DNA of 64,000 nucleotides from Schmidtea polychroa (GCA_044892525.1 CM097885.1:7690001-7754000); one strand, 5' to 3'; counted from the stretch's first letter, positions 1,005 to 34,316 are shown. Made by a program: numbers and translations. The notes: generated by a model from the letters alone, not told the origin.

Positions 1005-1007
<3 letters not shown>

Positions 1008-2375: not shown

Positions 2376-2511
<136 letters not shown>

Positions 2512-2714: not shown

Positions 2715-2749
<35 letters not shown>

Positions 2750-2755
<6 letters not shown>

Positions 2756-5528: not shown

Positions 5529-5775
5529 GTATATATCATATAATTGTAATGTATTTATTTTTCTTTAACGTTATTTTTACTTAATTCTTTAACGTCATAC
5601 AAAGAATTTTAATCTAAAAATTAAATCAACAGTAAAAGTGAAATATATTTCAAGGAATTGATTCTCATCATCAGTCTGCCATCTTAATTAGTGTCAAATA
5701 TTATATACGAACACAATATATTTTGTTAAACAAATTATTCCATTTTGTAGATTGATGGAAATATATTTTTTAGTA

Positions 5776-8700
5776 AGTAGGTAGTTAGTAGCTTACTGCA
5801 GCAATGACCCCCGGGGGGGGGGGGGGGGGGGTTCTGCTGCAACTTTTTTTTGCTGCAACTTTTGATTACGCAATTGCTGCAAATCACATTTTTTGCTTTC
5901 AGGGATTTTTGGTCCAAATTTTTTTTTATCACACTATAGTGAGGGGGTCTAGATGGTCCTGGGATTTTCAATACAAAAAATTTTTTTCTATACAAAAATC
6001 CGACTACCAATAAAAAAGCATGGATTATTCACACTATAGTGAGGGGGTCTAGATGGTCCTGGGATTTTCAATACAAAAAATTTTTTTCAATACAAAAACG
6101 ATGATCCTGGGATTTTCAATACAAAAAAAATTTTCAATACAAAAACGATGGTCCTGGGATTTTCAATACAAAAAATTTTTTTCTATACAAAAATCCGACT
6201 ACCAATAAAATAGCATGGATTATTCACACTATAGTGAGGGGGTCTAGATGGTCCTGGGATTTTCAATACAAAAAATTTTTTTCTATACAAAAATCCGACC
6301 ACCAATAAAAAAGCATGGATTATTCACACTATAGTGAGGGGGTCTAGATGGTCCTGGGATTTTCAATACAAAAAATTTTTTTCTATACAAAAACGATGGT
6401 CCTGGGATTTTCAATACAAAAAAAATTTTCAATACAAAAACGATGGTCCTGGGATTTTCAATACAAAAATAAAATTTTTCAATACAAAAACGATGGTCCT
6501 GGGATTTTCAATACAAAAAAAAATTTTTCAATACAAAAATCCGACTACCACTAAAAAAGCCAAGGATTATTCACACTATAGTGAGGGGGTCTTGATGGTC
6601 CTGAGAATTTCAATACAAATAAAATTTTTTCTATACAAAAATCCGATTACCACTAAAAAAGCATGGAATTTTCAGACTATAGTGAGGGGGTCTCGATGGT
6701 CCAGGGATTTTCAATACAAAAATCCGACTACCACTAAAAAAGCATGGTAATTTAAGGTCTCAGGATATTTTCAATACAAAAGCTGGTCTTCAATAAAAAA
6801 GCATGGTAATTTAAGGTCTCAGGATATTTTCAATACAAAAAGACAGTCTTCAATAAAAAACAGCGGTAATTTAAGGTCTCAGGATATTTTGAATACAAAA
6901 AGGTGGTCTACACTAAAAAGCATGGTAATTTAAGGTCTCAGGATATTTTCAATACAAAAAGACAGTCTTCAATAAAAAAGCATGGTAATTTAAGGTCTTA
7001 GGATATTTTCAATACAAAAATCCGATTATCACTAAAAAGCATGGAATTTTCTAGGTCAATTCAGGTGGGACTCCTTGGTCCTGGGATTTTCAATACAAAA
7101 ATCCGACTATCAATAAAAAAGCATGGATTTTTCGAATTAAATTAAGGTGGGTCTCCTTGGTCCTGAGAATTTCAATACAAAAAGGCAGTATACACTAAAA
7201 AAGAGTGGCAATTTAAGGTCTCAGGATATTTTCAATACAAAAATCCAACTATCAATAAAAAAGCATGGATTTTTCGAATTAAATTAAGGTGGGTCTCCTT
7301 GGTCCTGAGAATTTCAATAGAAAAAGGTGGTCTACACTAAAAAACATGGTAAATTTTTAAAAATAAAGCAAATTATGGGTCTAAAAATTGAATTACAGTA
7401 AATTATGGGTCTAAAAAATTAAATTACAGTAAATTATGGGTCTAAAAAATTAAATTACAGTAAATTATGGTCAAAATATTTGAATTAAAGTAAATTATGG
7501 GCTCAGATTTTTGAATTAAAGTAAATTATGGGCTCAAATAACTAAATTAAGGTTCAAATTTTTAAATTAAAGTAAATAATGGTTCTAAAAATTTAATTAC
7601 AGTTAATTATGGTTCTAAAAAATTAAATTAAGGTTCATATTTTCGAATTAAAGTAATTAATGGGCTCAGATTTTTCAATTAAAGTAAATAATGGTTCAAA
7701 TTTTTTAAATTAAAGTAAATAATGGTCCAAATTTTTAAATTAAAATAAATTTAGGTTCTAAAAAATTAAATTAAAGTAAATTATGGTTCTAAAAATTGAA
7801 TTACAGTATATTATGGTCCAAATTTTTGAAATAAAGTAAATGATGGTTCTAAAAAATTAAATTAAAGTAAATAATGGTCCAAATTTTAAAATTAAGTAAT
7901 CAATGGTAAAAAATTTTAAATAAGTAAATTAAAGTAATAATTTTTAAATAAGAAAATTAAAGTAATGTAATAAGTAAATTAAAGTAAGATTTTTAAATTT
8001 ATTAACAAAAAGTTGAAATAATAGGTGTTTGAGAATTGAAATTTTTTAATGAAAATTTTTATGAAATATTTTTCAATGGTAATTTTTAATGGAAATTTTT
8101 ATGGAATAATTTTTTAAGTTAATTTTTAATGGAGATTTTTATGAAATATTTTTCAATGCTAATTTTTAATGGAAATTTTTAAGATAATTTTTAATGGATA
8201 TTTTTATGAAATATTTTTCAAAGACAAATTTTAATAATAATTCAACAACAAACCAACAACTTAGTACCAACATGTATTTACAACCAGATACCTACAACTA
8301 GTTACTAACAACATGTTACCTGATACCAAGTACTTACAACTAGTTACTTACAACCAGTTACCAGATACCAAGTACCTACAACTAGTTACTAACAACTAGT
8401 TACCTGATACTAAGTACCTACAACCACCTACCAAGTACATACAACCAACATCAACCAGGTACTAAGCATTAATTACCAACTACTAAGTACCTACCAAGTA
8501 CCTACAACCACCTAACAAGCACTAACAACCAAAAACAAGCAACCAACTAAGTACCAAGTACTAACAACTAGTTACCAGATACCAACTACTCACAACCGAC
8601 AACAACCAGCTACTAAGCATTACCAACCACCTACAACCTACAACTAGTTACTAACAACTAGTTACCTGATACCTACAACTAGATACTAACAACCAAAAAC

Positions 8701-9290
8701 AAGCAACCAACTAGGTATCAAGTACTAACAATCAAAACAAGCAACCAACTAGGTACCAGATACTAACAATCAACTAACAACCAGGTACTAAGCATTAATT
8801 ACCAACTACTAAGTACCTACAACTAGATACTAACAACCAAAAACAACCAACCAACCAGTTACCTGATACCAAGTACTTACAACTAGTTACTAACAACCAG
8901 TTACCTGATAGCAACTAACTAGGTACCAGATACCAAGTACTAACAACCGCCAACAACCAGATACCTACAACTAGATACTAACAACTAGTTACCTGATAGC
9001 AACCAACTAGGTACCACCTACCAACTACTAACAACCGACAACAACCAGATACCAAGTACTCACAACCGTCAACAACTAGGTACTAAGCATCATCAACCAA
9101 CTACTAAGTACCTACAACTAGTTACTAACAACCAATTACCTGCTACCAAGTAACTACAACTATATAACAACGATCAGTAAACAACACTGTACCAACTACC
9201 AAGTACTTACAACTAGTTACTAATAACCAGATACATACAACTAGATACTAACAACTAGTTACCTGATAGCAACCAACTAGGTACCAGATA
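5776..9290 (+). repeat. Left TIR arm of the outer element (part 1), built of successive tandem-repeat blocks
   Basis: Reverse complement of ~29240-31724. Blocks: GGTCCTGGGATTTTCAATACAAAAA repeats (~5890-7340), ~29-bp AAATTAAAGTAAATTATGG repeats (~7370-7990), C/A-rich CAACTAG/TACC repeats (~8245-9290). Confidence 0.92.
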
Positions 9291-9608
9291 TGCACCCCAG
9301 CACCCCAACCCTCAAAAAAAAACAGCGCTATTGACCCATATTTTCCACATTTATATGCTTTTTTACCCCATATTCTTCACTTTTTTTAACTTTTAAACTT
9401 TGTCCCTTATTGCCATTAACCCTTAATTTCTTCCCTTAAAAGTAAAAAAGTTCGGAATAGATGTATTTATAGATTAGTAATTCCGAGAAAAGGTAACGGG
9501 GTGCATAGATTCCTCACTACTTGGTCTTAAGGATTTAATGTTATAAGGATTTAATGTTATAAGAATATCAGATTACCTAATTCATAATGATCTAGGTCGC
9601 CTGATCAC
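9289..9608 (+). repeat. Left TIR of the inner Polinton, lacking the terminal 14 bp
   Basis: Reverse complement of 23927-24245 with few mismatches; the expected AGTAGTGAGGAATC is absent. Confidence 0.93.
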
Positions 9609-10202
9609 CTTAAGGTTTTGAAAGTTTTAAAAATAAAAAATTTTATGAAAATAGTAAAACTGCTCTGAGGGGACAGTGGTATTTTTTTTTTTTTTTTTTT
9701 TTTTTTCACTGTCCCCTCAACAGTTTTTTTTGATCCGGATCATTTTTTTTTATTTATCAACCTCTTTCGTTTATCAAATCTCTTCCAATATACAAGCTGG
9801 CCAGACTCATACATCAGAATCAATCCGATAATAGCAGCACACCTTATTATTCGCTTCTCGCTCACGAAGTCGATTTCAACGGCGTTTTAAGCGTGCTGCT
9901 CGAAACTACAAATGAATTCGAAAGCGAATCCGAAAGAGGTCCGAAAACAACCAAGAAATAAATGTGCACATTATAGAATCGATCCGGGGGTGTTCGAAAG
10001 ACAGGTGGCGATAATTACCAGTTCGCCACCATCACCCGTTTCAATATTTTTTTTTTCATATTTATGTTTAAAAAATAATTAATTAATAAAAAAATAAAAT
10101 AAAATAAAATAAATAAAATAAAATATACAAGTACTTTATAAATATAAGATACCCACACTATTATTTTCAAATTTTTAATATTATTTTTATGTTGAAAAAA
10201 AA

Positions 10203-10278
10203 CTAACCACAGTTAGGATTTGAACCGCTATCTATTTGAACCACTGTGCCGGTCTAGCCCACTGCGCCATCAAGGTTT
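10203..10278 (-). ncRNA. tRNA-like Pol III gene, copy 1
   Basis: Minus strand: A box TGGCGCAGTGG, B box GGTTCAAATCC at tRNA spacing, followed by a T8 terminator; cloverleaf not canonical. Confidence 0.7.
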
Positions 10279-10442
10279 GAATTTTTGTCATTTTTTAGAC
10301 TATAAATAATCGATTCAAGTTAAAACGTTTTTGATCTTAAATTTCCAAGAGTTGCCGTTGACCAATCACCTTTAAAATTTGTACAAGTACTAAATCGAGT
10401 ATGCTGATCAATATTTTGTTTAAAAAAAAATTTGAAAAAAAA

Positions 10443-10515
10443 TGACCGAAATGGGATTTGAACCCATTGGTATTGGCAATGCAGTCGAGTGCTATTACCA
10501 CTAAGCTATACTCAA
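10443..10515 (-). ncRNA. tRNA-like Pol III gene, copy 2 (tRNA-Cys-like 5' half)
   Basis: Minus strand TTGAGTATAGCTTAGTGGTAATAGCACTCGACTGCATTGCCAATACCAATGGGTTCAAATCCCATTTCGGTCA then T8; A box, perfect T-arm ATGGG/CCCAT; anticodon and acceptor stems do not pair canonically. Confidence 0.75.
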
Positions 10516-10675
10516 TATGAAATAAGTTGTTAATGTGTGACTATTTATTGATGAAATTAATAATTAATTATTCATTTTCTCGACAACTACCACTCAGATC
10601 CATCTGAAAATTTAAATATATACTAAAATCAGTACGCTGAATCAGATTCCGTTGAAAAAAAAATATCGAAAAAAA

Positions 10676-10752
10676 TTGACCAAAATCGAAAATTGAACCC
10701 GGTACTCCCGGTGATAAAGTTGAAGCCTATTCCCACTCCGCTATAATGGCTT
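10676..10752 (-). ncRNA. tRNA-like Pol III gene, copy 3
   Basis: Minus strand: A box TAGCGGAGTGG, degenerate B box GGTTCAATTT, 3' GGTCAA then T7; same position within a ~236-bp repeat unit as copies 1-2. Confidence 0.6.
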
Positions 10753-10806
10753 ACATAGTATATTTAATTAATCCTATTGTGTGTGTGTAAATTTTAATAT
10801 ATAAAA

Positions 10807-12099
10807 ATGAATAATATAAATCTTAAAATTCAAGAAAAAAATAAATTAAATCTTGATTATAATAAAGAATTTACTCATGAAATCAAGAAAAACGATGTAC
10901 TTAAAATCTCCCCAACTTCAGGATCTATTGCAAACTTAAATCGTAGGGGTGATATAGTTTTTCAATCTCTTCAAACATCAAACCCTATAGATATTTGTAA
11001 TGCCAAATTATATTATAAAATCGAATTAGAAATTGAAGCAAACAAAGATATAACCCTAGAAAATAATTTCTTTCCAAATTTATTCTCCAATATGAGATTA
11101 AAACTAGGATCATCAGAAATTGAAACTGTTTTACATCCGGGAGTATATTCTACAATGTTAAATTTTATTTTGACTGGTTGTGATTATAAAAACGAATATG
11201 GTGAATTAACAGGTTGGATTCCTGATGTTAATAAAGGGGATTTAGATAAAGATGGTTTAGATGTAAACCATGGTTACTATAAAAGAGCTGAACTTTATAA
11301 ATCTAAAAAATTTGAAGGTTATTTTGAATTAAAACACTTGTTTGGATTCCTTCAAAACTATAATCGTATACTTCATAATGTTTTTATAGAATTCATCTGT
11401 AATAGAGTAGAAGGTGATAAAAGATTGTTCTATGGAGCTGTAGATACAAAAGCTAAATTAAAATTATCAACACTTGAATTACATATACCTGAATGGACAT
11501 TAAACCCACATTCTGAGATTAAACTCCTTGAAAGATTAAATTCCAACAAGTCTATAAATGTAAATTATTTAAATAGAATCTGTAGTGAATTTAGTATGAC
11601 AGAGGGTTCAACATATTCTATAAAGGTAGCAAATTTAGCATACCGACCAAGATATATCTTGATTGGATTCAAAGAAGTAGATTCATCTTTCCAAAAAAAT
11701 AACAACTTGTTTATTCAAAAGATTGGAGTTGATAATTTAAAAACAATCCAAATTCAATTAAATAGTTCTTATTATCCAATAAATAGAATGGAATTTAATA
11801 TTGAAAATAATGAAAACATATTCCCATATCTAAATTATATTGAAACATGTTATGATTTCAAAGTTGAACCGCAATTAAGTTTAGAAGATTTCAAAAATTT
11901 ATATTCTATATTTTGTATAAATGTTTCAGACCAAGATGATCGCCTAGCCATAAATAATGTTGATGTTAAACTTCATGTAACAAAGGATTCTAATTTTAAA
12001 GCTAAAGTATATACATTAATATTAGAAGAAAAGAAAATAGAAATGAAATTATATGGTGGAAAGATTTCAATAATCGAAAATGTTAGGGGAGATTCTTAA
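10807..12099 (+). CDS. Polinton major capsid protein (double jelly-roll, hexon-like)
   Basis: 430 aa, LENNFFPNLFS, RPRYILIGF, LNSSYYP, FKNLYSIFCINVS motifs typical of Polinton MCP; genomic context. Confidence 0.85.
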   Translation: MNNINLKIQEKNKLNLDYNKEFTHEIKKNDVLKISPTSGSIANLNRRGDIVFQSLQTSNPIDICNAKLYYKIELEIEANKDITLENNFFPNLFSNMRLKLGSSEIETVLHPGVYSTMLNFILTGCDYKNEYGELTGWIPDVNKGDLDKDGLDVNHGYYKRAELYKSKKFEGYFELKHLFGFLQNYNRILHNVFIEFICNRVEGDKRLFYGAVDTKAKLKLSTLELHIPEWTLNPHSEIKLLERLNSNKSINVNYLNRICSEFSMTEGSTYSIKVANLAYRPRYILIGFKEVDSSFQKNNNLFIQKIGVDNLKTIQIQLNSSYYPINRMEFNIENNENIFPYLNYIETCYDFKVEPQLSLEDFKNLYSIFCINVSDQDDRLAINNVDVKLHVTKDSNFKAKVYTLILEEKKIEMKLYGGKISIIENVRGDS

Positions 12100-12128
12100 T
12101 ATAATCCCTGATATTTTAACATTTTAAA

Positions 12129-13538
12129 ATGTCTCTAAATAAATATTGGAGATGTGAAACTTGTAATTGTCAAGTTACAAGACATCATAAAGCAAGCCAT
12201 CTTAAAACTAAAAAACATACAGTAGGTGACCTAATTCCACGAGCTGGAGGCGATTTGCAATCTTCAAAAACAACATCTTCAATATTAAAACCTTTTACTA
12301 CAGAAAAATATCCAGGTGAAAGACATTTATTTAAACACAACTATACTGGACCAGGAACATGTCTAGATATTAGATTAGATGAAAATAATAATCCCAAACA
12401 AGGAGAAGAACCAATAAATAGAATTGATCAAGCAGCTTTAAAACATGACATTGCATACAATTCAACAAATCTTAGAGATAGACATGTTGCAGATGTGAAT
12501 TTAATACATGATTTAAATAGTATCCAAAATCCATCAACCCAAGAAAAGATTCAAAGAGCTCTAGTTAAATTAGCAATGAAAGGTAAGATTTTCATAGGCT
12601 TAGGACACAGTCCGATCACCATGGGTGCAAGACTTCCTAGGAAAGCAAAAGATGTTGCTTATAAAAAGATTATCGAACAAGCAGAGATTGAAAGATCCCT
12701 CGAGAGTACAGCCAAGACTAGTTTACAAACCCCAACAGAATCAGAAATAAAATATGCAAATGAATTACACCATGAATTTAGAAAAAATAAAAAATATTTA
12801 AAAGTTCAAGTACATGAAAAAGATCAAACATGGTCTGCAGATTTAGTCTTTATGCCCAAATCATCAGACCCTGAAAAATATAAAATAATTTTAACTGTAA
12901 TAGATTTATATACAAGATTTGCTTTTGCAAGATGTTTAGAAAATAAAACAGGATATTCTATTACAGAAGCATTTGAAAATATATTTGAAGAAAATCAAAG
13001 AATCCCAAAATATTTATGGTGTGATAAAGGAACAGAATTTTATAACAAAGTTTTTACAAAGTTTTTAAATGAAAATGATATTAAATTATATTCAACAGAA
13101 AACGAAGGAAAAGCAGTCGTAGTTGAAAGATTAAATAGAACATTAAAAAATAAAATGTGGAAATATTTTACTGCTATTGGAAAACAAAAATGGAACAATG
13201 AATTGTTACAAAAGATTGTAAATGAATATAATAATGATGTACATAGTTCTATAAAATCAACACCTTTAAATGCTTCCATGAATCCTGAAACCATTAAAGT
13301 GGTAAATATTGAAAATGATGTTATTGAAAAACCAAAGTTTAAAATTGGTGACCGAGTAAGAATATTTAAATATAAAAATAAATTTGAAAAAGGATTCACA
13401 GCAAAATGGACAAATGAAATTTTTATTATAAATAAAATACATTATACAACTCCAATAACATATAGCATCATTGATTTAAATAATGAAAAAATATTAGGTA
13501 GATTTTATAATAATGAGTTACAGAAAACAGATTTTTAA
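12129..13538 (+). CDS. Retroviral-like (c-)integrase with N-terminal Zn finger and parvovirus-type phospholipase A2 domain
   Basis: DDE: WSADL, WCDKGTEF, VVERLNRTLK; C-terminal KFKIGDRVRI..GFTAKWTNEIF; PLA2 motifs NYTGPGT and DQAALKHDIAY; CxxC..HxxxxxH at the N-terminus. Confidence 0.93.
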   Translation: MSLNKYWRCETCNCQVTRHHKASHLKTKKHTVGDLIPRAGGDLQSSKTTSSILKPFTTEKYPGERHLFKHNYTGPGTCLDIRLDENNNPKQGEEPINRIDQAALKHDIAYNSTNLRDRHVADVNLIHDLNSIQNPSTQEKIQRALVKLAMKGKIFIGLGHSPITMGARLPRKAKDVAYKKIIEQAEIERSLESTAKTSLQTPTESEIKYANELHHEFRKNKKYLKVQVHEKDQTWSADLVFMPKSSDPEKYKIILTVIDLYTRFAFARCLENKTGYSITEAFENIFEENQRIPKYLWCDKGTEFYNKVFTKFLNENDIKLYSTENEGKAVVVERLNRTLKNKMWKYFTAIGKQKWNNELLQKIVNEYNNDVHSSIKSTPLNASMNPETIKVVNIENDVIEKPKFKIGDRVRIFKYKNKFEKGFTAKWTNEIFIINKIHYTTPITYSIIDLNNEKILGRFYNNELQKTDF

Positions 13539-13549
13539 GTCGACAAGCC

Positions 13550-14395
13550 CTAAAACAAACTTTTCCATATTTCAGCTTCTTCTCTATCCAAATAAATATA
13601 ATTATATTTTTCTTTCCAATGATTATCAACAAACATATCAAACATATTCTTATCAGGTTCAACATTTGAAAATAAATCATTATAAATCATATTCTTATCA
13701 CGGCGATCTAATTTAAAAAATATAAAACAATTGGAATTATTTCTTATTGAATTTTTATCTAAAGCATAATATGTTTGAGATATATAAATAACATTACAAT
13801 TATTATGTCGACCTCGTGTAAAGTAACTCTTTTGAATCTCTTGATTTTTCATATTAACAACATCATCAAATATAACTAGATTCTTTTTATCTTTAGGAAG
13901 TAAATCACAATGTAAAACATCTTCAGGTTTATTAGAGAATAAAACTTGAATTGCCTCCTGCCCTTCTTCACAAATATAATCATTTTTATTACTAATATCT
14001 GATTCTAAAATCTTTTCCTTATACCAATCAACCATATCACAAGGTTGAAAAACTTCTTCAGGACACCTATGTTGATTTTTAAAAATATCAATTATTGCTT
14101 TTTTAGTTAATTTATTTTCAAATCCACATTTCAAAAGTTGTAATTCTGGTTGATTTATGGTTGTAGAATAAAAGATTAAATTATTATAATCTAAAAAATC
14201 ATCTTCAAGTAACATTCTCAAAACAAGTACATTCTTTCCACATCCAGAAGAACCAACAATTAATAATCTAAAATTATCAGGAAATACTTTATTATTGAAT
14301 TTACTCTTATGTCTATTTAAAATTGGTTTCCAAATTATTGGACTTCGTACATCCATTTTGTTTATTATAAAATGACAACTGAAGAATCTTTGCAA
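13550..14395 (-). CDS. A32/FtsK-like genome packaging ATPase (true start probably MDVRSP at 14356)
   Basis: Walker A GSSGCGKN, Walker B LVIFDD, TRGRHNNCNVIYISQTY, IRNNSN. Confidence 0.93.
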   Translation of the reverse strand: MQRFFSCHFIINKMDVRSPIIWKPILNRHKSKFNNKVFPDNFRLLIVGSSGCGKNVLVLRMLLEDDFLDYNNLIFYSTTINQPELQLLKCGFENKLTKKAIIDIFKNQHRCPEEVFQPCDMVDWYKEKILESDISNKNDYICEEGQEAIQVLFSNKPEDVLHCDLLPKDKKNLVIFDDVVNMKNQEIQKSYFTRGRHNNCNVIYISQTYYALDKNSIRNNSNCFIFFKLDRRDKNMIYNDLFSNVEPDKNMFDMFVDNHWKEKYNYIYLDREEAEIWKSLF

Positions 14396-14965
14396 GAATT
14401 AATAAATTCAAATAAAAATAAATCAGTAGTAATTGATGGTAAAAAATATTTTATTGGAAAACATGTAAAAGAACAAGTTAGAGCGAAGCTCCACGAAGCT
14501 AAAGAAGGTGGCATTCTTCCATTAGCTGCTTTAATACCTGCAATCATTGCTGGTTTATCAGGTGCTGCTGGAATAGCTGGAGGAATTGCAACTACAGTTC
14601 AAAAAGCTAAAGAATCTCAAAAGACAGACCTAGAAAAAGAAAAACTACAAACTGAAATCGATTCAATGAAGAAGGTAGGGCAAGCTAAAGGGGGAGTGTC
14701 CGTTGGAAAGGTTCTCTATCTTAATCCATATGAGGGGAGTCGGCAAAAGTCTCAGGGCAAAGGTCTCTATCTTGATCCTTATAAAGGTAGAGGTTTAAAT
14801 GATTTTTTAAAAAATCAAATTTCTACATCTGAATCTCTATCTTCAAAAGATAAAGAAGATTTAAAAAAAATATGTAAATCTTTAAAGAATGGATGCCTTT
14901 GTAAAACTAAAAATGGTAAAGGATTATACTTGAAGCCCTTTCCAACGGATCCTTTACCAAAATGA
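14372..14965 (+). CDS. pX/pre-mu-like virion core protein
   Basis: GG|ILPLAALIPAIIAGLSGAAGIAGG resembles adenovirus pX; repeated GKGLYL/GxG putative protease sites; basic. Confidence 0.65.
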   Translation: MTTEESLQELINSNKNKSVVIDGKKYFIGKHVKEQVRAKLHEAKEGGILPLAALIPAIIAGLSGAAGIAGGIATTVQKAKESQKTDLEKEKLQTEIDSMKKVGQAKGGVSVGKVLYLNPYEGSRQKSQGKGLYLDPYKGRGLNDFLKNQISTSESLSSKDKEDLKKICKSLKNGCLCKTKNGKGLYLKPFPTDPLPK

Positions 14966-14987
14966 TACCATTTTTAATACCATAAAA

Positions 14988-15857
14988 ATGGTATATGAAG
15001 AAAGATTAGCACTTTTAAAAAAATTACAATCAGAACAAGATAAATATAATAAAAAAGATACAAGTCAACATGCTGAATCTATAATATTAAATGAGGTAAT
15101 AACACAACAACAGGGGCCAACAATTAAAGCTATAAAAGGATTAAATGAGCAAGCAAAATTTAAAGAGTTAGAAGATGGAGGAAGTCCCCGTGAACAAAAA
15201 ATAAAAAAACTAGAGTGGAAGGAAGAATCCAGTGAAAGTCATTCTGAAAGAAATCAAAGAAAACGCAGAAGAATTTCTAATGCGGAAGAAGAAGAAGAAA
15301 TGTTTTTAAAAACAAAACCTCTTAAAGTTGATCCTAAAATTAGAGATGATTTACCTCCTTCAATTAGACCCACATTTAATACTAATACTGAAGGATATCA
15401 AATAATAACAATTAATAAACAAAACTTTACTTTATATTCAAATTCAGAAAATAAATCACGTATTCATTCACAAAATGTTTATAATAATGAATATTTAGAC
15501 TTTGAATTTACAGATGATTTTTATAAATTACTTTGTGGATATTCTTCAGATGATCTTGAAGAAATTAAAAAATATTTAAATTTAATAAGATTAATAAGAG
15601 CTGGTTCTAAAGCAAAATATATTCAAGATTTAAAGAATTATTTAGATAAAAATGAAAAGGGTTATGTTGTTACAGAGGGAGAGGGATTAATTAGTGAAGG
15701 AAATCCCATCAATCTTTTTATTGAATTAAGAAAACTATTAGCTGCAAGGAAAGCAGGACATAATAATTTAGATTCTGATATTTTAAAGATTTCTAAAGAT
15801 TTGTTAAAACAAGGAATAATTTCAAAAGATAAATTTAATAAGTATACGAAGTTATAA
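14988..15857 (+). CDS. Conserved-type Polinton hypothetical protein, 289 aa
   Basis: Intact ORF in the virion gene block; C-terminal GEGL..LRKLLAARKAGHNN..LLKQGII motif; basic NLS-like RKRRR. Confidence 0.6.
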   Translation: MVYEERLALLKKLQSEQDKYNKKDTSQHAESIILNEVITQQQGPTIKAIKGLNEQAKFKELEDGGSPREQKIKKLEWKEESSESHSERNQRKRRRISNAEEEEEMFLKTKPLKVDPKIRDDLPPSIRPTFNTNTEGYQIITINKQNFTLYSNSENKSRIHSQNVYNNEYLDFEFTDDFYKLLCGYSSDDLEEIKKYLNLIRLIRAGSKAKYIQDLKNYLDKNEKGYVVTEGEGLISEGNPINLFIELRKLLAARKAGHNNLDSDILKISKDLLKQGIISKDKFNKYTKL

Positions 15858-15879
15858 ATACGAAGTTATAAAATACAAA

Positions 15880-16332
15880 ATGACTCCTTCAATATTAGAT
15901 TTTTTAAAAACATTTGGAATAAATGCAAAAACAAATTTTGATTTAAAAGATTATGCAAATTATTTAAATTTAAAAATTAAAATATTAATGAATGATGAAT
16001 TATCAAGTCTGGAGAGTCCCCTGAATATAATAATCAATTATCAAAATTCAAATGAAAAAGGATCTCATTGGGTTTGTATATATAAGAAGTCTATCTACTT
16101 TGATTCTTTTGGGATTAAACCTACTAAAGAAGTTGAAGATTATCTCTTGAGGGGTTCTCCGATTGATTCCCCAAATGGTTATACTTTTAACTCTTTACAA
16201 GTTCAACCTTTGAATACTAAAATATGTGGTATTTTAAGTTTATATGTTTTGTATAGATTGAATATGGGGCATACGCAGGATTTTGAATCTATAATTCAAG
16301 AAATTTATAATGATCTAGAATCTCTACTATAA
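15880..16332 (+). CDS. Adenain-like cysteine (maturation) protease
   Basis: GSHWVCI (His), YFDSFG (Asp), QVQ..ICG (oxyanion Gln and Cys). Confidence 0.92.
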   Translation: MTPSILDFLKTFGINAKTNFDLKDYANYLNLKIKILMNDELSSLESPLNIIINYQNSNEKGSHWVCIYKKSIYFDSFGIKPTKEVEDYLLRGSPIDSPNGYTFNSLQVQPLNTKICGILSLYVLYRLNMGHTQDFESIIQEIYNDLESLL

Positions 16333-16380
16333 GGATTTTTACTATAAGGATTTTTACTATATGAATTTACTACTAAAGAA

Positions 16381-17127: not shown

Positions 17128-17185
17128 CATTTGAAACAGGTTTAGTTCCTCTCAGGGGACTCCGTCCATTTTAAATTATTAATAA

Positions 17186-18196: not shown

Positions 18197-18204
18197 TTAT
18201 TAAA

Positions 18205-18801: not shown

Positions 18802-18895
18802 AATGGGTGTATTTTTAAAAAAGTAGATCAGGTTGCTATAGTTGCTTAAATTAATTGTCGACATTTTATTATTAAAAAATTAAATATCGTTGGTT

Positions 18896-19450: not shown

Positions 19451-19474
19451 TTTATAGTGTTAAAATTCTAATTC

Positions 19475-23401: not shown

Positions 23402-23409
23402 TGATGATA

Positions 23410-23853
23410 TTATTTTTTTTTATTTTCTCTTATATATTGCATGATTGATCTGGGTCCTCGTTTTACTTCTGCAATTACATCGGTGTGATTGAAGTCATCC
23501 CAATTAAACTCTAGTTTTTCAGCTTTTTCAGTCATTGAGTTTGAATCAGAATCTTTTGCTTCAAGACCACAATCTTCTATGTGTCTTAAGTAAAAAGATT
23601 TTATCCTCATCGTTTTTCCACATGCTGAACATTCGAATATTTCTCTGTTTTTAGGAACTCCAATACAATTTTTAAAATGCTTCTTATAACCTGAAAATAA
23701 ATATCTATCCTTACATTTAGTACAGATTTTGGAATTAGTGTCATCTAGTGTGTTAGCTTTTATTAAATGGTCTTTTGATTTTTTATGAGATGTTAAAGCA
23801 GTTTTATTTTTAAAATTTTTTTCACAAATTTCACAATTGAAAATAGCTTCCAT
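23410..23853 (-). CDS. Zinc-finger protein, probably the N-terminal extension of pPolB separated by a 1-nt frameshift
   Basis: CEIC..HKKSKDH, CTKC..HFKNC, CSAC..HIEDC; ends in an A9 run plus TAA, 8 nt before the polB ATG. Confidence 0.7.
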   Translation of the reverse strand: MEAIFNCEICEKNFKNKTALTSHKKSKDHLIKANTLDDTNSKICTKCKDRYLFSGYKKHFKNCIGVPKNREIFECSACGKTMRIKSFYLRHIEDCGLEAKDSDSNSMTEKAEKLEFNWDDFNHTDVIAEVKRGPRSIMQYIRENKKK

Positions 23854-23926
23854 TTTTAAAAGAATCTTTTGGTTGGATACGATGTTTTGGTTTTGATATT
23901 AATTTTTATTTTTTTTAAATCTAAAA

Positions 23927-24259
23927 GTGATCAGGCGACCTAGATCATTATGAATTAGGTAATCTGATATTCTTATAACATTAAATCCTTATAACATTAA
24001 ATCCTTAAGACCAAGTAGTGAGGAATCTATGCATTCCGTTACCTTTTCTCGGAATTACTAATCTATAAATACATCTATTCCGAACTTTTTTAATTTTAAG
24101 GGAAGAAATTAAGGGTTAATGGCAATAGGGGACAAAGTTTAAAAGTTAAAAAAAGTGAAGAATATGGGGTAAAAAAGCATATAAATGTGGAAAATATGGG
24201 TCAATAGCGCTGTTTTTTTTTAGGGTTGGGGTGCTGGGGTGCATAGATTCCTCACTACT
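23927..24259 (-). repeat. Right TIR of the inner Polinton (complete, 333 bp)
   Basis: Reverse complement of 9289-9608 plus the terminal 14 bp; reads AGTAGTGAGGAATCTATGCACCCC from the end. Confidence 0.93.
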
Positions 24260-24755
24260 AACGATCAGTAAACAACACTGTACCAACTACCAAGTACTTA
24301 CAACTAGTTACTAATAACCAGATACATACAACTAGATACTAACAACTAGTTACCTGATAGCAACCAACTAGGTACCAGATACCAAGTACTAACAACCGAC
24401 AACAACCAGATACCAAGTACTCACAACCGTCAACAACTAGGTACTAAGCATCATCAACCAACTACTAAGTACCTACAACTAGATACTAACAACCAAAAAC
24501 AACCAACCAACTAGGTACTAGATACCAAGTACTAACAACCAACATCAACCAGGTACTAAGCATTATCAACCAAGTACCTACAACCAACAACAACTAGCTA
24601 CCACCTACTAAGTACTTACAACCAAGTATAAGATACCTAGTACTAAGCACTGTCAACTAGATACCAAGTACTTAAAACCAGATGACCACATGAAATTATT
24701 GGTAAAATAAGTAAATTAATGTCTAATTTTAAAATTAAGTAATCAATGATCTAAA
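24260..24755 (+). repeat. Left TIR arm of the outer element (part 2, resumes after the nested Polinton)
   Basis: Reverse complement of 28875-~29362; first 122 bp duplicate 9169-9290. Confidence 0.9.
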
Positions 24756-25527
24756 ATATTAAAGTCAATTTAATATGAAAGTTTTTCTGGGATTTTCAAT
24801 GTTAATTTTAGATGCAAATCTTCCTCAATTAATCAATGACCACATGAAATTATTGGTTAAATATGAAAATAAGGATTATATTTAGTTGTTAAGCAAATTA
24901 TGGTGTAAAATTAAGAAATAAAGAATAATTAGGTAAATTAAGGAAAAGTAAATTAAAGTTAAAAATTTTAAATAAGTAAATTAAGGTTCAAAATTTTAAA
25001 TTAAAGCTAAATGAGTAAATTAAAGTAATAATTTTTAAATAAGTAATGTAATAAGTAAATTAAACTAAGATTTTTAAATTTATTATCAAAAGATTGAATA
25101 ACCACCAACTTTTTTGAGAAATGTAATTTATAATGAAAATTTAAATGGAAATTTTAATGAAATAATAATAATAATAATATTTAAACAGTTACCAACAATT
25201 GGTTACTGATTTTTTTTAACTAGGTGCTAACAAATAAGTAACAAATACTTTCAACATGATCCCACGTACTAACTAACTCTCAAACAACCAAGTAAAAACA
25301 ACTAACTACTTACAATCAACTAAATATTCTTTATTGTATTTCATGAATTGTATACCATCACTCAATCACTTTAACACACCACGTGAAATTCAAAATAATT
25401 TAAATTACAATGAAAGACTAATGAATTCTAATTTACAAAACATTCTTCTTTTAATTGATAACTGATTATTGCATTGTAAAAATCGCATTCAATAAATACT
25501 TATTGTTGATCAGTTTTATTATATATA

Positions 25528-28520
25528 CTCTGAGTTTATCCTACAGGATGTTTTGACCCCCTAAGGGTACTGGTCGTAAGGGTACTGGTCGTAAGGGTAT
25601 TAGTCGTAAGGGTACTAGTCGTAAGGGTACTGGTCGTAAGTGTATTGGTAACACTCAACAACCACCTACCCATTAACTAGCTACAACCAGCTAACAACTA
25701 GATACCAAGTACTAACAACCGACAACAACCAGGTACTAAGCATTATCAACCTACAACTATATAACAACAATCAGTAAACAACACTGTACCAACTACCAAA
25801 TACAAGATACCAACAACTTAGTACCAACAATCAACTAACAACACATAAAAATAATAGCAATTAAATACAAAATATTCTTCATCGTATACACTATCTTCTT
25901 ATCAAAATCTAAAAAGTCAACCAACTACTGACAACCAACAACTATGTATTAACAAATAGATCTTTAAAAGCAAATACTCATCACTTGAAAAATTAGATGG
26001 AAAATTAATTGAACTCAAGACATCAATAACTTGGTAAAAATTGATTAAATAATTGTAAAAATTTAAATTATACCAAATAATTATTATAAAAATGTAATTA
26101 ATGGACAAGAAAGAATTTGAATCATTAATCATCCAGTAAATAAAAAAAAATATTGATCATTCAAGTTGAATCAACTAAGATAATAAATTAATAAATTTTT
26201 TGAAATAAGATCTAGTAGATAATTGATTTAGATTGAATAAATTAATTGAAATAAAATTAATTTTAATTATTTTTTTTAAAAGTACTCAAATTGATTGACT
26301 GATTTCTCAATATATTCAAAAATCAGTATAAATTCATTACAATTATCAATGTCATCAATCTACAATAAAAATAATTATCATTAAATTCCAAGAGACTAGA
26401 AAACTAACAAACCAGTAAATTCATTCAAATGACAATAATTGGTATATCCGAGTGAATTCTCCAATAAAATCATCTAAAAAGCATCATATTTCCCTGAAAT
26501 ATCTCTATCTTTTAAGATTAGTATCTTATCGATAAGTACTTGTTAAAGATCATATATTCACCTCAAACTAAAAAGATTCCTTAAAATCCCTTAAATGACT
26601 ATATTTCAACCCTTAATTCGTATTATTACAAATATCATCTAAAAAGCATCAAATTTCCCTGAAATAACTCTATCTTTAAAGATTAATATTTTATCGATAA
26701 ATATCCTTAAAAGGTTATATATTTACCTCAGACTAATAAGATTCCTTAAAATCCTTTTAAATGACTAATTCATATTATCACGAATATTTCCCTTTAAAAC
26801 ATGTAAAATAAATTGGTCATTAACCCTAAATAATTTATAAAATCTAATGATAAAACTGGTTATAATTAAATTTTTATTCTAAAAATAAATCACTCTATTT
26901 GAAATTTAAAATAATTATTACTGTACAATATAACTGACTAGGTCCCATTGAAAGATTAAATTTATCCATTCAATTAAATAAATTTCTTCAAATGGTCAAC
27001 TTTTGTCGTTGTCCGTCTAAATAAACATAAAAATAATTTAAAGTTGATATCAATTCCAATTATCTGTAAAGATTTCATTGTCAAAACCAAGTAATTCGAT
27101 CATTATCCCTACTTAATAAAACATTGTTCTAAATTAATTTACTGTGCATTAATCACAACCTAATAAAACGATATAATTATTATTTATTCATAACTGACTA
27201 ATTGACATTTCCCTTACAACATTGTTATTTTACCAACAGCATACTTAAAAAATCATATATTCCCATCTTAACCCATCTCTCATTAAATTTAACCGACTAT
27301 ATCTCCCTTACAATGATATATTCCCATCTTAACCCATCCCTCATTAAATTTAACCAACTATATCCCCTCAAAAGATCATATTTTTCCATCTTAACCCATC
27401 CCTCATTAAATCTAATCGACTATATCCCCTCAAAAGATCATATTTTCCCATCTTAACCGATCTCTCAGCAAATATTTCTACACTTTTAAACATCTATCCG
27501 ATTATATCCCTTAATTTCCCCAAAGATTCCACCCACTTAAGCACTTTAATATATCAATCCTCTTAAAATCCTTAGAGAACTTCAAAAATATGACTTAACT
27601 GTTATAGACACCAAATATTCTTCCATTGAAATAATTTAGTAGCTATGTATTTCACCCATCAAATACCTAACTGGGGATGATATATATTGTTTGATCATAA
27701 TTCTTCAGCTATTCAGCCAATCATTTTCAAGCAATAACAGCAAACTAAATTTCAGTATATCCTACAATAATCAAGTAAATTTAAAGTCATTGATAAAGTT
27801 AACTGGTTTCTTAGCTTATGTTTTTTAAAGTGCATCAATGTGTAAATATTCTTAGAAAATTATTTATTCTATCACTTAATTATTAACCTAATTGTCAATG
27901 AAATTAATTTTTATTTAAAAACTATTCAATAAAATACCACTAATTATCAAGAAATTAATTAAATTTATCAATTAAATTTATCACCATTAAAACTTTTAAT
28001 CAGTCAACATGAAATTCTTAGAAAATTATTCAATATCCTCATAAAAATTTATCCTATCACTTGATTATTGTAAAAACTCTAATTATTAACCTCATTAAAA
28101 ATAAATTTTTATTTAAAATTAAAAAACAAGTCAATAAAAATACATTAAATTATCAAGAAATTAATTAAATTTACCTTAGAATTAGCATTAAATTACAGAT
28201 ATTCACAAAAAATTACGGAAATTCATGAAAATGATAGATATCCACAAAAATTACGGATATTCACAAAAATGATAGAAATCCGCAAAAATAATAGAAAATT
28301 ACAAAAAAACGATAAAAATTCACAAAATTGATAGAAATTTATTTGAATATTTACTAAAACCATCAACTCTAAAAATTATCAATGAATGCCTTAAACAAAT
28401 TTGACTAAATAATCATTCAAATAAAAGCATTAAATACCTTTACGACATGTTGAATGTGAGTAGTACCCTTGTGAGCAATACCCATAGGGGATCAGAATAT
28501 TTTGTCGAATAAACTCAGAG
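25528..28520. mobile_element. Possible degenerate TIR element in TA runs inside the outer core
   Basis: CTCTGAGTTTATCCTACAGGATGTTTTGACCCCCTAAGGGTA at 25528 and its inverted relative ending at 28520; a third copy of the end lies at ~57594-57656; 15-bp subterminal tandem GGTACTGGTCGTAAG. Confidence 0.5.
27250..27460. repeat. ~56-bp tandem repeat (CCCATCTTAACCCATCCCTCATTAAATTTAACCGACTATATCCCCT)
   Basis: About four degenerate copies; explains ORF 27202..27456. Confidence 0.8.
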
Positions 28521-28874
28521 TATATATTAATTAACTCATTCAAATTTATCATTGAATCAGTAAAATTATCATAAATTTCGATAAAAATTCTAAAGTGGTA
28601 AGCAATGTAAAATGAAAAGACAATTATTCTTTAAACTTTGATAAAATTAACAATGAAGGTGGTAACAATCTTCATTAAAGTGAGGAAATTATTCATTACT
28701 CGATGATAAATTCAAATGAGTGAAAATAAGTGGTAGAATAATTCATTAATGGATCATGGGAAGTAAATACTGAGAAGCGGCATAGATAAGATGAAGGTTG
28801 ATAAGAATGCAAATATATTAATTTATTTAAAATTATTTCATAAAATTCATAAATTTAATAAAAAAAAAATAAAA

Positions 28875-31724
28875 TTTAGATCATTGATTACTTAATTTTA
28901 AAATTAGACATTAATTTACTTATTTTACCAATAATTTCATGTGGTCATCTGGTTTTAAGTACTTGGTATCTAGTTGACAGTGCTTAGTACTAGGTATCTT
29001 ATACTTGGTTGTAAATACTTAGTAGGTGGTAGCTAGTTGTTGTTGGTTGTAGGTACTTGATTGATAATGCTTAGTACCTGGTTGATGTTGGTTGTTAGTA
29101 CTTGGTATCTAGTACCTAGTTGGTTGGTTGTTTTTGGTTGTTAGTATCTAGTTGTAGGTACTTAGTAGTTGGTTGATGATGCTAGTTGTTGACGGTTGTG
29201 AGTACTTGGTATCTGGTTGTTGTCGGTTGTTAGTACTTGGTATCTGGTACCTAGTTGGTTGCTATCAGGTAACTAGTTGTTAGTATCTAGTTGTATGTAT
29301 CTGGTTATTAGTAACTAGTTGTAAGTACTTGGTAGTTGGTACAGTGTTGTTTACTGATCGTTGTTATATAGTTGTAGGTACTTGGTAGCAGGTAATTGGT
29401 TGTTAGTAACTAGTTGTAGGTACTTAGTAGTTGGTTGATGATGCTTAGTACCTAGTTGTTGACGGTTGTGAGTACTTGGTATCTAGTTGTTGTCGGTTGT
29501 TAGCAGTTGGTAGGTGGTACCTAGTTGGTTGCTATCAGGTAACTAGTTGTTAGTATCTAGTTGTAGGTATCTGGTTGTTGGCGGTTGTTAGTACTTGGTA
29601 TCTGGTACCTAGTTAGTTGCTATCAGGTAACTGGTTGTTAGTAACTAGTTGTAGGTATCTGGTTGTTAGTAACTAGTTGTAAGTACTTGGTATCAGGTAA
29701 CTGGTTGGTTGGTTGTTTTTGGTTGTTAGTATCTAGTTGTAGGTACTTAGTAGTTGGTAATTAATGCTCAGTACCTGGTTGTTAGTTGATTGTTAGTATC
29801 TGGTACCTAGTTGGTTGCTTGATTTGATTGTTAGTACTTGATACCTAGTTGGTTGCTTGTTTTTGGTTGTTAGTATCTAGTTGTAGGTATCAGGTAACTA
29901 GTTGTTAGTAACTAGTTGTAGGTTGTAGGTGGTTGGTAATGCTTAGTAGCTGGTTGTTGTCGGTTGTGAGTAGTTGGTATCTGGTAACTAGTTGTTAGTA
30001 CTTGGTACCTAGTTGGTTGCTTGTTTTTGGTTGTTAGTACTTGTTAGGTGGTTGTAGGTACTTGGTAGGTACTTAGTAGTTGGTAATTAATGCTTAGTAC
30101 CTGGTTGATGTTGGTTGTATGTACTTGGTAGGTGGTTGTAGGTACTTAGTATCAGGTAACTAGTTGTTAGTAACTAGTTGTAGGTACTTGGTATCTGGTA
30201 ACTGGTTGTAAGTAACTAGTTGTAAGTACTTGGTATCAGGTAACATGTTGTTAGTAACTAGTTGTAGGTATCTGGTATCAGGTAACTGGTTGTTAGTAAC
30301 TAGTTGTAGGTATCTGGTTGTAAATACATGTTGGTACTAAGTTGTTGGTTTGTTGTTGAATTATTATTAAAATTTGTCTTTGAAAAATATTTCATAAAAA
30401 TTTCCATTAAAAATTATCTTAAAAATTTCCATTAAAAATTAGCATTGAAAAATATTCCATAAAAATTTCCATTATAAATTACCATTGAAAAATATTTCAT
30501 AAAAATTTTCATTAAAAAATTTCAATTCTCAAACACCTATTATTTCAACTTTTTGTTAATAAATTTAAAAGTCTTACTTTAATTTACTTATTACATTACT
30601 TTAATTTACTTATTTAAAAATTATTACTTTAATTTACTTATTTAAAATTTTTTACCATTGATTACTTAATTTTAAAATTTGGACCATCATTTACTTTAAT
30701 TCAAAAATTTGGACCATAATTTACTGTAATTCAATTTTTAGAACCATAATTTACTTTAATTTAATTTTTTAGAACCTAAATTTACTTTAATTTAAAAATT
30801 TGGACCATTATTTACTTTAATTTAAAACATTTGAACCATTATTTACTTTAATTGAAAAATCTGAGCCCATTAATTACTTTAATTCGAAAATATGAACCTT
30901 AATTTAATTTTTTAGAACCATAATTAACTGTAATTAAATTTTTAGAACCATTATTTACTTTAATTTAAAAATTTGAACCTTAATTTAGTTATTTGAGCCC
31001 ATAATTTACTTTAATTCAAAAATCTGAGCCCATAATTTACTTTAATTCAAATATTTTGACCATAATTTACTGTAATTTAATTTTTTAGACCCATAATTTA
31101 CTGTAATTTAATTTTTTAGACCCATAATTTACTGTAATTCATTTTTTAGACCCATAATTTGCTTTATTTTTAAAAATTTACCATGTTTTTTAGTGTAGAC
31201 CACCTTTTTGTATTGAAATTCTCAGGACCAAGGAGACCCACCTGAATTGACCTAGAAAAATCCATGCTTTTTTATTGAAGACCGCCTTTTTCGATTGAAA
31301 TTCTCAGGACCAAGGAGACCCACCTTAATTTAATTCGAAAAATCCATGCTTTTTTATTGATAGTCGGATTTTTGTATTGAAAATCCCAGGACCATCGAGA
31401 CCCACCTCACTATAGTGTGAAAAATCCTTGGCTTTTTTAGTGGTAGTCGGATTTTTTGTATAGAAAAAAATTTTTTGTATTGAAAATCCCAGGACCATCG
31501 TTTTTGTATTGAAAAATTTTTTTTGTATTGAAAATCCCAGGACCATCGAGACCCCCTCACTATAGTGTGATAAAAAAAAAATTTTGGACTAAAAATCCCT
31601 GAAAGTAAAAAAATGTGAGTTGCAGCAATTGCGTAATAAAAAGTTGCAGCAAAAAAAAGTTGCAGCAGAACCCCCCCCCCGGGGGGGGGGGGTCATTGCT
31701 GCAGTAAGCTACTAACTACCTACT
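28875..31724 (-). repeat. Right TIR arm of the outer element (uninterrupted, 2850 bp)
   Basis: Reverse complement of 5776-9290 joined to 24382-24755, with fewer tandem units in the distal block. Confidence 0.92.
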
Positions 31725-34316
31725 TTAGTATTAATAATTTATCGTTTCAAATTAATGAAAAGCTTAAAAAATACAATTTTATCCTAATTTTTTAATAAGA
31801 TCATCCATCTTCATTTTAACTCTAAATCAATGCATATTTCTTTTGCTATTTAATACAAATATTTTGCACGTTCGTTACCTTTCTCACGATAAAATTACAT
31901 TAAATCGATGTAGTGAGCCGTTACACGGCCTTAACAAAATCTATATAAATATTATATTATATATAAATTGGTGATCATTAGCGAATAAGGATCAATCAGA
32001 ACACAATTATGGCCAATCAAATATCACCTATAATTGCACATTATCTGGAACATCGCAGTCTACTCTATCTCATCCCAAGAGTCAATCAAAATTCATGCAA
32101 TCAGCTAATACTTCTACTTATCAATCAGGCTCTCTTAATCAATCTCAGACGAGTAAAGCAAATTTGATGCCATGTTATTATTATCAAGATTAACTGTATT
32201 CGGCTCCTAATAGTTTTAGTGTTGGCTCTCATAGACCAAAATCTTTATCCATTATAATTCGCGAAATATGTAATAAATCCTAAAAATAATATGAACCAGA
32301 ATAGATTTGTTATCCAACCATTACACAAATCAATTATGGATCCAAGAAATAACGAACAAATAAATTTATTGGGATATCTGAATAAATTGGAAGCTTGATA
32401 ATTAATTGTTACTTTTTATGATTTTTTGTGGATCAAGGAATATCGTATTTTTTTTGAGTTTTAATGCTTTATAAATAAATCATTTTTATTTATTGATGTT
32501 AAGTAAAAGTTTGTTTTGACAGATGCCAGAGATAATGCGGGAAACCAAGATTATTATTAACTGATTTCAGAATTTTATCAGTCGATCAGTTGAAAACAAA
32601 TTCATCTTGAATATCATAAACATTTTCATCTGTTTCATTAACTCCCACGACTAAATTCCTAACAATTCATTGTATAAACCTCTCTCCAATTTACTTTTGA
32701 TATTATTGAACTTTCACTTGACTTTATATTCCTTTTCAGAATTGAGACTTCAAAATTTAAAAATAAAAGTTCTTTTAAAGATACCAAAAAAAACTAATTA
32801 AACAAATATAAAATAATCGGGGAGAAAATGTGTAAATCGGAGATTGTGTCGTTCCGGAACTCTGAAAATACAAATTGAGGAAAAGAAATTAAAATTGATA
32901 AGAGAAATAACAAATCAAAGAAATACGTCAAGGTCATTCTTAAATGAAGTACAAATGAAAAATATGAAAATAAAAACAAAAAAAAATTGGGAATGGAATT
33001 TGGTCCGAAATAACAAATGGATTACTGGAGAAGTCGGAAAAATTAAAAAGTAAAGAAAACGAAATAAAATAGTATAACTCAACAGATGTCAGAGATGATG
33101 GAAATTTCCGGGAAAAAAAATTATCTAAAAGATTCATAAGATGGCAAAATATAAAAAGAAGGACACTAATTGGAGAAAGACAGAAATTATCGTAGAAGCA
33201 GAACTGAAAAAGCGAATAGAAATAAAATGATAGAAAACGTAGAATTGAAACATTATTTAACAGAAGATAAACGGAAAAAGAAATCTGATAGCTAAATCAG
33301 TAAGCCAATGAGACTTGAACTAACAACCAGCAATTCAAAAAGTATCTAAGTCAGGGCAGTAAAGCAGCCGGACCGATTGTATGAAGTGTCAGTCCACTAG
33401 CAGCTTATTAATAAGTGTCAGAAAATGGCAAGGTATAAAATAAACACACAAATTTCAAAGACAAGAGAAAATTTATTTTGGGAAGCAGAATTAGAGAGTA
33501 GATTATAAATAATTTGAAAAGAGAAGAAGTGAAGTCGTATTAAATCGTATTTAATAAAAGATAAAACGAAATAGCCAAAGAAATATAGAAAAGGGGAATA
33601 TAATCGTTAAAACCAATAACCTAGTGATAACCAAATTAACAAGCAGTAATTGTTAAAGTAGGAAAGCAACCAGATCAATTATGCGAGGTGTCTACCGCTA
33701 GCAGCAGTTAAATTGTCGGATAATTAAAGTGTTTCCAAAGTGCTTTTCGTCCCGAAGGGTTGTAATAAGCACTCGAATACGTTTGAGTTGCATTAAGAAA
33801 TTGGTTTCATTGTAATCGTTATAACCATTTAGGATATTCAACCGCCAATACGCCCAGGAAGCGAGGTCAACCCCGGAAAATACTACCGGGTCATCGAAGT
33901 CCACTGACTGGTGATATATCCTTTCGTAATTAAGACGCACTCACTCATCTAACGCTACAGTTGGTTGTCTCTGATTTCCCATTGGTTACATTTTCGTAGT
34001 CTGTATCTCTGTGTGCTTGTGCCTACAACATTGTGACCCATTTGATTTTATTAATTTTTGATTTTTCACTATAGGTTCGTAATAGTTAACAATATATATG
34101 GTTTTCATATTCATTTTCTGATCTATTTCAGTTTTATTGAATAGTTTTTTATTTAGAAAATTATTTTAATAACTCTTCGGTTCCATTTTTCACCACACCG
34201 AAAAAGCTTGATAAATGGTTTTGAATTTTTTTTATCTATATTTCAATCAATGTTAAAATTGAAACAATTAATCTCATTTGAAATGGTTGGTGAACTTATC
34301 TCTTTGGTGTTTGGAT

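Follow-up and report, generated by a model that had tools for sequence, protein, structure and literature searches.

How does a gene-bearing virus-like element come to lie inside the arm of a gene-less one, and do the two move as partners or does one simply rest within the other? In this work we address this question for a single locus in Schmidtea polychroa, using a 64,000-nucleotide stretch of DNA (GCA_044892525.1 CM097885.1:7690001-7754000; hereafter the window, with all positions counted from its first letter). The locus is a composite of 25,949 bases (5776-31724), in which a Polinton of about 14,970 bases (9289-24259, starting at about 9290) interrupts the left arm of a larger foldback element, which we call the shell. 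We consider it about two-to-one probable that the composite arose when a Polinton, since become defective, inserted by chance and by one end only into a gene-less satellite already present at the locus, and the composite is likely to be a passive nest rather than a partnership of helper and satellite.

The insertion scar

The evidence for this reading lies at the two junctions between the elements. At the right junction the intact end of the inner element abuts the shell at 24259/24260 with zero overlap, and at the left junction the inner end is missing 14-16 bases and shares a 2-base microhomology with the shell at 9289-9290. The 6-bp duplication expected around the inner element (5-8 bp is the norm for Polintons) is not present at these junctions. 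Adjoining them, 122 bases of the shell arm are duplicated exactly (122/122), with a left copy at 9169-9290 (+), whose last two bases also fit the inner element, and a right copy at 24260-24381 (+) directly after the intact inner end. The right arm of the shell holds a single identical copy of this stretch. Since the 122 bases are doubled in the left arm and single in the right, it was the shell that received the insertion, in its left arm alone.

An initial annotation of this DNA had described a gene-bearing element with unrelated terminal inverted repeats interrupting the outer left arm, and this description is upheld by the lack of any blastn match between the inner element and the shell (word 7, E<=0.01). 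Its statement that the inner repeats begin AGTAG applies to the right end (24259) and fails at the clipped left one, whereas it was correct in noting that the outer element alone has two intact ends, because the inner element lost its left tip on or after arrival. The structure of the junctions, with the clipped left end and the 122-base duplication, was left unresolved in that annotation and is added here. The long duplication appears to mark the insertion event as abnormal, the assignment to Polintons resting on gene content, and this copy cannot be classed as an intact Polinton.

Scars with these properties have been described for retroviruses in PMC5041404. In insertions where a retroviral integrase has joined a single end, that end is normal and the other often truncated; the aberrant end usually shows short homology and is extended by host polymerase on nearby DNA, and its joining by recombination leaves either a deletion or a host duplication that runs to hundreds of bases or more. 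Like the one-ended proviruses of HIV-1 and avian sarcoma-leukosis virus in that account, the inner Polinton has one normal and one truncated end, a short homology and a long target duplication, and with all four marks present we infer by analogy that it probably followed the same one-ended route. That the inner element encodes a retroviral-type integrase counts in favor of this reading. The proviruses differ in having arisen in cells with drugs, a mutant integrase or a mutant DNA end, whereas the present case is a natural, inherited insertion of a DNA element, represented by one junction.

The sequence of events that we propose would begin with the insertion of the 10.9-kb shell by the Polinton-type integrase of another element, probably of a family carrying the end sequence of the shell. 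The left arm of the shell would then have been struck by a member of an unrelated, very abundant Polinton family; this order is suggested by the undamaged outer duplication and by the single copy of the target in the right arm, while the divergence between the arms (18 of 2,205 positions) and between the inner repeats (4 of about 320) gives no order for the two insertions. By analogy with retroviruses, the inner integrase would have joined the right end cleanly before 24260, and the left end would have failed, been trimmed by 14-16 bases and primed at a 2-base match lying 122 bases farther on, so that host repair, in closing the gap, duplicated the 122 bases. Left without two intact outer ends, the inner copy would have decayed since, presumably under neutrality; the two lesions in its polymerase are seen directly. 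A different scheme, in which two insertions 122 bases apart were joined by recombination, was rejected, as it requires two strikes in one shell and leaves the clipped end unexplained.

The outer shell

The outer element is best read, on its AGT..ACT ends, its 6-bp duplication and its lack of genes, as a putative non-autonomous shell of Polinton type. As the initial annotation had stated, its termini read AGTAG..CTACT and are bounded by a 6-bp target-site duplication: they lie immediately inside two copies of TTAGTA (5770-5775 and 31725-31730), an agreement with a chance probability of p = 0.0016 for two random 6-mers drawn from 2 kb of flanks, and the two ends are identical over their first 33 bases (33/33). 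The end itself, AGTAGG, is one base off the (AGT)2 motif as given in PMC8097293. Setting aside the insert and one copy of the duplication, the shell measures 10,858 bases, of which 3,889 belong to the left arm, 4,119 to the core and 2,850 to the right arm; this bears out the repetitive arms of about 2.9-3.9 kb described earlier.

Both arms are built as tandem-repeat arrays with unequal numbers of units. The first part of the left arm (5776-9290, +) runs from the terminus through tracts of 47/100-, 60/82/142-, 30- and 13-base repeats and is A/C-rich from about 8250; its second part (24260-24755, +) matches 29362-28875 at 98%, and the right arm (28875-31724, -) is without interruption. Over their inner 2.2 kb the arms show 18 differences in 2,205 aligned positions and 5 repeat-unit gaps, and their longest ATG frame, of 85 codons, lies within tandem repeats. 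The core (24756-28874) consists of arm-repeat scraps together with 15-, 62- and 165-base tandem repeats. That it lacks a credible open reading frame, as previously claimed, agrees with each of our searches: its longest stop-free frame spans only 84 codons, none of its six frames matches Pfam at E<=0.1, and tblastn of 13 inner proteins against the shell and flanks (E<=0.01) gave no match, indicating no decayed Polinton genes in the core. Six 15-base tandem repeats at 25562-25649 are richer in G+C and dissimilar to the arm repeats.

The proposal that the shell is a non-autonomous Polinton satellite stands as the best reading, and the part of it that calls for a parent family is without a counterpart in the comparisons made, since no autonomous element matching the shell ends was found by terminus look-up, in the fetched Polinton loci or in viral contigs (0 exact matches to the terminus in the last). 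The termini of the shell and of the inner element have only their first five bases in common.

The inner Polinton

By its sequence features, the inner element is assigned to the Polintons, also known as Mavericks or adintoviruses. Like these, it encodes a protein-primed polymerase B, a retroviral-type integrase, a packaging ATPase, a double-jelly-roll capsid and a protease-like gene, and it has terminal inverted repeats of about 360 bases, an (AGT)2 end and a length of 15 kb; the gene content of Polintons and adintoviruses set out in PMC8502044 and PMC10748475 fits that found here. Unlike intact Polintons, this copy has no 6-bp duplication, a clipped left end and a broken polymerase, and unlike the elements compared, its repeats hold an inverted copy of the terminus and its left leader holds three tRNA-like units.

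Open frames cover 97% of 10807-23853. The major capsid protein (10807-12099, +; 430 amino acids) carries the double jelly roll (PF21738, E 1.7e-26). Of 4,019 candidates, 41 are related to it, with P0001 (431 amino acids) the best at 97% identity. The capsid gene is followed by a retroviral-type (rve) integrase of 469 amino acids in an open frame (12129-13538, +; PF00665, E 5.8e-12), at whose N-terminus (12129-12570) a phospholipase A2-like domain (PF08398, E 1.1e-8) is fused; a similar full-length alignment occurs in the fetched loci L001 and L022, whereas PMC8502044 places the phospholipase A2-like domain in a PLA2X gene. An A32-type packaging ATPase with Walker A and B words (13550-14356, -; PF04665, E 1e-8) precedes two genes of 197 and 289 amino acids (14372-15857, +) that have relatives in fetched Polinton loci. 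The next gene (15880-16332, +) is likely to encode an adenain-type maturation protease; its Atlas feature matches (0.96-0.97, with 0.97 as the feature score) are to clusters in which PF00770 is found on 15-62% of members, which constitutes one kind of lead, and there is no Pfam, PHROG or PDB sequence match. A 248-amino-acid gene (16381-17127, +), kept in 8 of 37 related loci, possibly encodes a minor capsid protein, judging by its size and position, with Atlas matches to unnamed viral clusters. Beyond it lie a fibre-like gene (PHROG tail fibre, E 1.8e-5) and a hydrophobic gene of 198 amino acids (together 17186-18801, +).

The polymerase region (19475-23853, -) is recognized as protein-primed polymerase B when read with X at its stop (PF03175, E 1.7e-14), a class that PMC8502044 calls Alpha. 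A separate gene at 18896-19450 (-) is an older, partial duplicate of the polymerase C-terminal region, with 73% DNA identity to 19526-19987. The polymerase itself carries two lesions. One is a stop at codon 853 (20843-20845), between a word at 774, which we take to be motif A, and words at 934 and 1037, presumably motifs B and C. The other, a frame break near 23410 at a 10-base homopolymer, places the zinc-finger N-terminal part in another frame. In the metagenomic locus L002 the zinc finger and both polymerase parts lie in one frame of 1,414 codons (3-4244, -), and in L023 the parts on either side of the stop lie within one frame. Read-through of the stop under a special code was rejected because TGA also terminates 2 of the other 12 listed inner frames and the two relatives, L002 and L023, are unbroken there. 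The gene order around the capsid gene differs in L002.

Searches with the capsid identified a relative in 37 of 501 candidate stretches from JGI metagenomes and none in viral contigs (0/1 and 0/67 candidate stretches). To judge from gene order and length, none of the 37 loci evidently reaches an element end. They contain no match to the inner leader or to the shell, and no A/B-box pair or tRNA (0/37), a count that, with the ends not evidently reached, is uninformative on the conservation of the tRNA-like units.

The left terminal inverted repeat (9289-9651, +) is without its first 14-16 bases and the right one (23891-24259, -) retains an intact (AGT)2-type end; the two align over 363 bases at 94.8%, with 4 differences over about 320 positions. 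About 230 bases inside each repeat lies an exact inverted copy of the 20-base terminus (9502-9521, -, and 24014-24033, +), a word with three matches in the window and none in 100 shuffles. The right copy closes a predicted 20-pair stem with 24240-24259, and the last 246 bases are in this way predicted to fold back on themselves (z -4.9). These 246 bases resemble a self-contained mini-element or a fold-back end. In the leader, hairpins are found at 9658-9723 (26-base T-rich loop, z -7.2) and at 9990-10040 (z -2.0).

The three tRNA-like units of the leader (10195-10269, 10435-10513 and 10669-10743, all -) point outward and are the sole pairs of A box and B box with a T run in the 64 kb; 200 shuffles of the window gave 0.025 such pairs on average and at most 1. 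The second matches the Rfam tRNA model at 26.7 bits (E 0.0067), under the gathering score of 29. We rejected these units as true tRNA genes, since ARAGORN reports 0 genes, one of the three matches Rfam, below the gathering score, and no cloverleaf folds. Among the listed variant places in 10150-10800, 1 of 30 falls within the 65 box bases against 3.0 expected, which is not significant.

Copies in public sequence runs

The inner element, or part of it, is present in 20 of 24 listed public runs from 7 studies, with no RNA run among the listed holders. Contigs from four of the 24 were aligned over 9110-10850, which covers the left junction only. Both the shell-arm and the inner families are highly repeated in these runs: run X1 places 30,055 contigs on the 1.7-kb stretch, with depth on both the arm and the inner part (a figure that is not a copy number), and the arm sequence is abundant in all four. 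In X1 and X10, the joints and loose ends listed for 9286-9290 run on into arm-like sequence, from which it follows that uninterrupted arm exists, a signal that the right arm of the locus itself could supply. Of the places listed over about 1,560 inner bases, 4 have another letter in at least 99% of the X1 depth, and the inner copy therefore carries private changes. Runs X5 and X10 have zero depth over 9346-9522 with the leader beyond covered, which could reflect other copies with other ends, although a gap in contigs is no proof of this.

Alternative explanations

Several observations count against a chance, one-ended insertion. The scar alone fails to separate a faulty insertion from a left junction that was rebuilt later, and one-ended integration has been demonstrated for retroviruses and not for Polintons, so that its extension to the inner element stays an analogy. 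The open integrase, capsid and ATPase frames mean that the inner copy could still supply some proteins, and decay need not account for the frame break near 23410, which could stem from a sequencing error or be characteristic of the family. The insertion also lies inside a tract enriched for words of the shell terminus, as a landing pad might look; the helper of the shell was not found by any of the three routes given above; and among the pieces listed, no contig spans the left junction.

An unlikely alternative is that the inner element inserted normally, with a 6-bp duplication, and that a later break at the left junction was mended with arm sequence, copied in where the tip of the repeat had been. 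The break could perhaps have come from an abortive excision nick or have occurred in the foldback, with the right flank or the opposite arm as template. Long inverted repeats are prone to breakage, and since the two flanking copies of the 122 bases are identical to each other and to the one in the right arm, any of the three could have served as template. However, this scenario needs two events where one is enough, and the outcome of the single event fits the class described in PMC5041404 in every feature.

Of similarly low probability is the proposal that shell arms are preferred landing sites, whose terminus-like words draw integration complexes and perhaps disturb the second strand transfer, a proposal that is itself compatible with one-ended insertion. 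The inner tract of the left arm that holds the insertion site (8250-9290, +) contains 79 reverse-orientation 6-mers of the shell terminus in 1,041 bases, compared with a mean of 50.3 and a maximum of 67 in 100 dinucleotide shuffles, or 76 per kb versus 1-2 per kb in the flanks; when the terminus was shuffled instead, only 5 of 2,000 shuffled termini scored equally high on the tract. In addition, PMC8547959 provides a case of nesting preference elsewhere, with 91% of type 1 Ngaro retrotransposons sitting in endogenous virophages. Against this, the locus offers a single event, the test was picked post hoc after inspection of the sequence, and composition accounts for most of the enrichment. Words of the inner terminus, moreover, are not enriched in the tract (5 versus a shuffle mean of 12.4), and in PMC8547959 mavirus-like elements, which carry the same integrase type, showed no sequence-specific integration. 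With so many copies of both families, nesting by chance is what one would expect by default.

It is improbable, to a greater degree, that the shell is a foldback of another superfamily, of Mutator or P type, with similar ends by chance. Long tandem-repeat arms around a non-coding middle are the build of foldbacks, most of which are placed with Mutator in PMC4079207, and the end AGTAGG departs from the usual (AGT)2 and is without a matching autonomous element among the comparisons made. Set against these points is a duplication of 6 bases, as in vertebrate Mavericks (PMC8097293) and within the 5-8 of Polintons (PMC10748475), rather than the 8-10 of Tetris foldbacks (PMC4079207). No remnant of a Mutator or P transposase was found in the shell.

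The initial annotation had further suggested that the shell captured a helper and that the 26-kb composite moves as a unit, with the integrase and capsid genes of the inner element acting on the intact ends of the shell. Both outer ends are indeed intact, both termini start AGTAG, the integrase, capsid, ATPase and protease-like frames are open, and PMC6431247 describes composite units framed by foldback elements in Drosophila. Yet the polymerase is broken in two places, leaving an incomplete set of mobility genes, and the termini diverge after five bases, and for these reasons we regard helper capture as very unlikely. The length of the composite also argues against capture, since its 25.9 kb amount to 1.7 times that of the inner element and lie above the range of intact vertebrate Mavericks, which PMC8097293 gives as 12.7-24.6 kb (mean 16.9). 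With junctions that look like those of a single faulty insertion, this suggestion is unsupported, although passive carriage of the composite by an outside helper is possible. A broader scheme is equally doubtful, namely that gene-less foldback satellites act as landing pads, with arrays of terminus-like words in their arms attracting gene-bearing Polintons, and that one-ended insertion locks the guest in through the loss of its tip, the composite then traveling on the shell ends with captured integrase and capsid, as a satellite that has enslaved a virus.

An assembly error joining two repeat families is the least credible of all, despite the identity of the 122-base copies, the abundance of both families and the lack of a spanning contig among the pieces listed, because a misjoin needs shared sequence and the two elements have none; it would further require two false joins 122 bases apart in one arm, one of them exactly at the last base of the element, and, at about 4 private changes per 1,560 bases, two copies of 122 bases would be expected to be still identical if the event is young.

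Comparison with known systems

Non-autonomous Polintons were reportedly described by Kapitonov and Jurka in 2006. The shell resembles such elements in its Polinton-like ends, 6-bp duplication and lack of genes, and differs from those compared in its repeat-array arms of 2.9-3.9 kb around a 4.1-kb core. With the foldbacks FB, FB-NOF, Galileo and Tetris it shares long inverted arms of tandem repeats, unequal unit numbers, a non-coding middle and cargo between or within the arms, but it has a 6-bp rather than an 8-10-bp duplication and AGT..ACT ends. The Ngaro retrotransposons in endogenous mavirus-like elements (PMC8547959) likewise place one mobile element inside another of the Polinton-virophage circle; there, however, the virus is the host and the preference extends over many copies, whereas here the gene-bearing element is the guest in one case.

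Among related reports, PMC3014272, PMC11414722, PMC12220804, PMC6431247, PMC8547959 and bioRxiv 10.1101/2025.02.07.637071 describe, in the parts available, nested retrotransposons or several Polintons per locus, with no equivalent of the present case, and a Maverick expansion is described in Dugesia (bioRxiv 10.64898/2025.12.11.693146). A search of titles and abstracts, outside which most subscription papers and the Repbase reports fell, so that absence from print is not established, returned no Polinton nested in a non-autonomous Polinton, no giant gene-less foldback Polinton and no one-ended Polinton integration; within the same limits, it returned nothing on RNA polymerase III units in Polintons.

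Other features of the window

Beyond the composite, the window contains a young long terminal repeat (LTR) retrotransposon at 41111-53709, with repeats of 1,059 bases that are 99.9% identical. In this element a frame of 1,460 amino acids, combining a zinc knuckle, a weak ubiquitin-like stretch and a Monjiviricetes-type fusion glycoprotein (PF24664, E 1e-92), sits before the protease-reverse transcriptase frame. The remnant of a second LTR retrotransposon (60414-63364, -) retains a zinc knuckle, protease, reverse transcriptase, RNase H and an integrase zinc domain, and an isolated integrase fragment, to which the inner integrase gives no match in tblastn, lies at 36241-36930 (-; PF00665, E 1.1e-6). 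The C-terminal part of a host deoxyhypusine synthase gene, intron-free over 198 codons, occupies 42-638 (+).

Significance

What this locus adds is the nesting together with its scar; it is otherwise an ordinary single nested insertion in a repeat-rich genome. It bears on whether gene-less foldback satellites attract or carry gene-bearing Polintons. The locus alone amounts to one nested insertion, and its scar is a useful lead on Polinton integration, which has so far been inferred mostly from genes and 6-bp footprints. Copies with a clipped end and a long duplication escape searches that require a short duplication, and the high copy number of the family makes such events countable, with the share of these copies giving an integration error rate. 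A natural junction bearing the marks of retroviral one-ended integration suggests that Polintons insert as a free linear copy, end by end, with host repair as the fallback.

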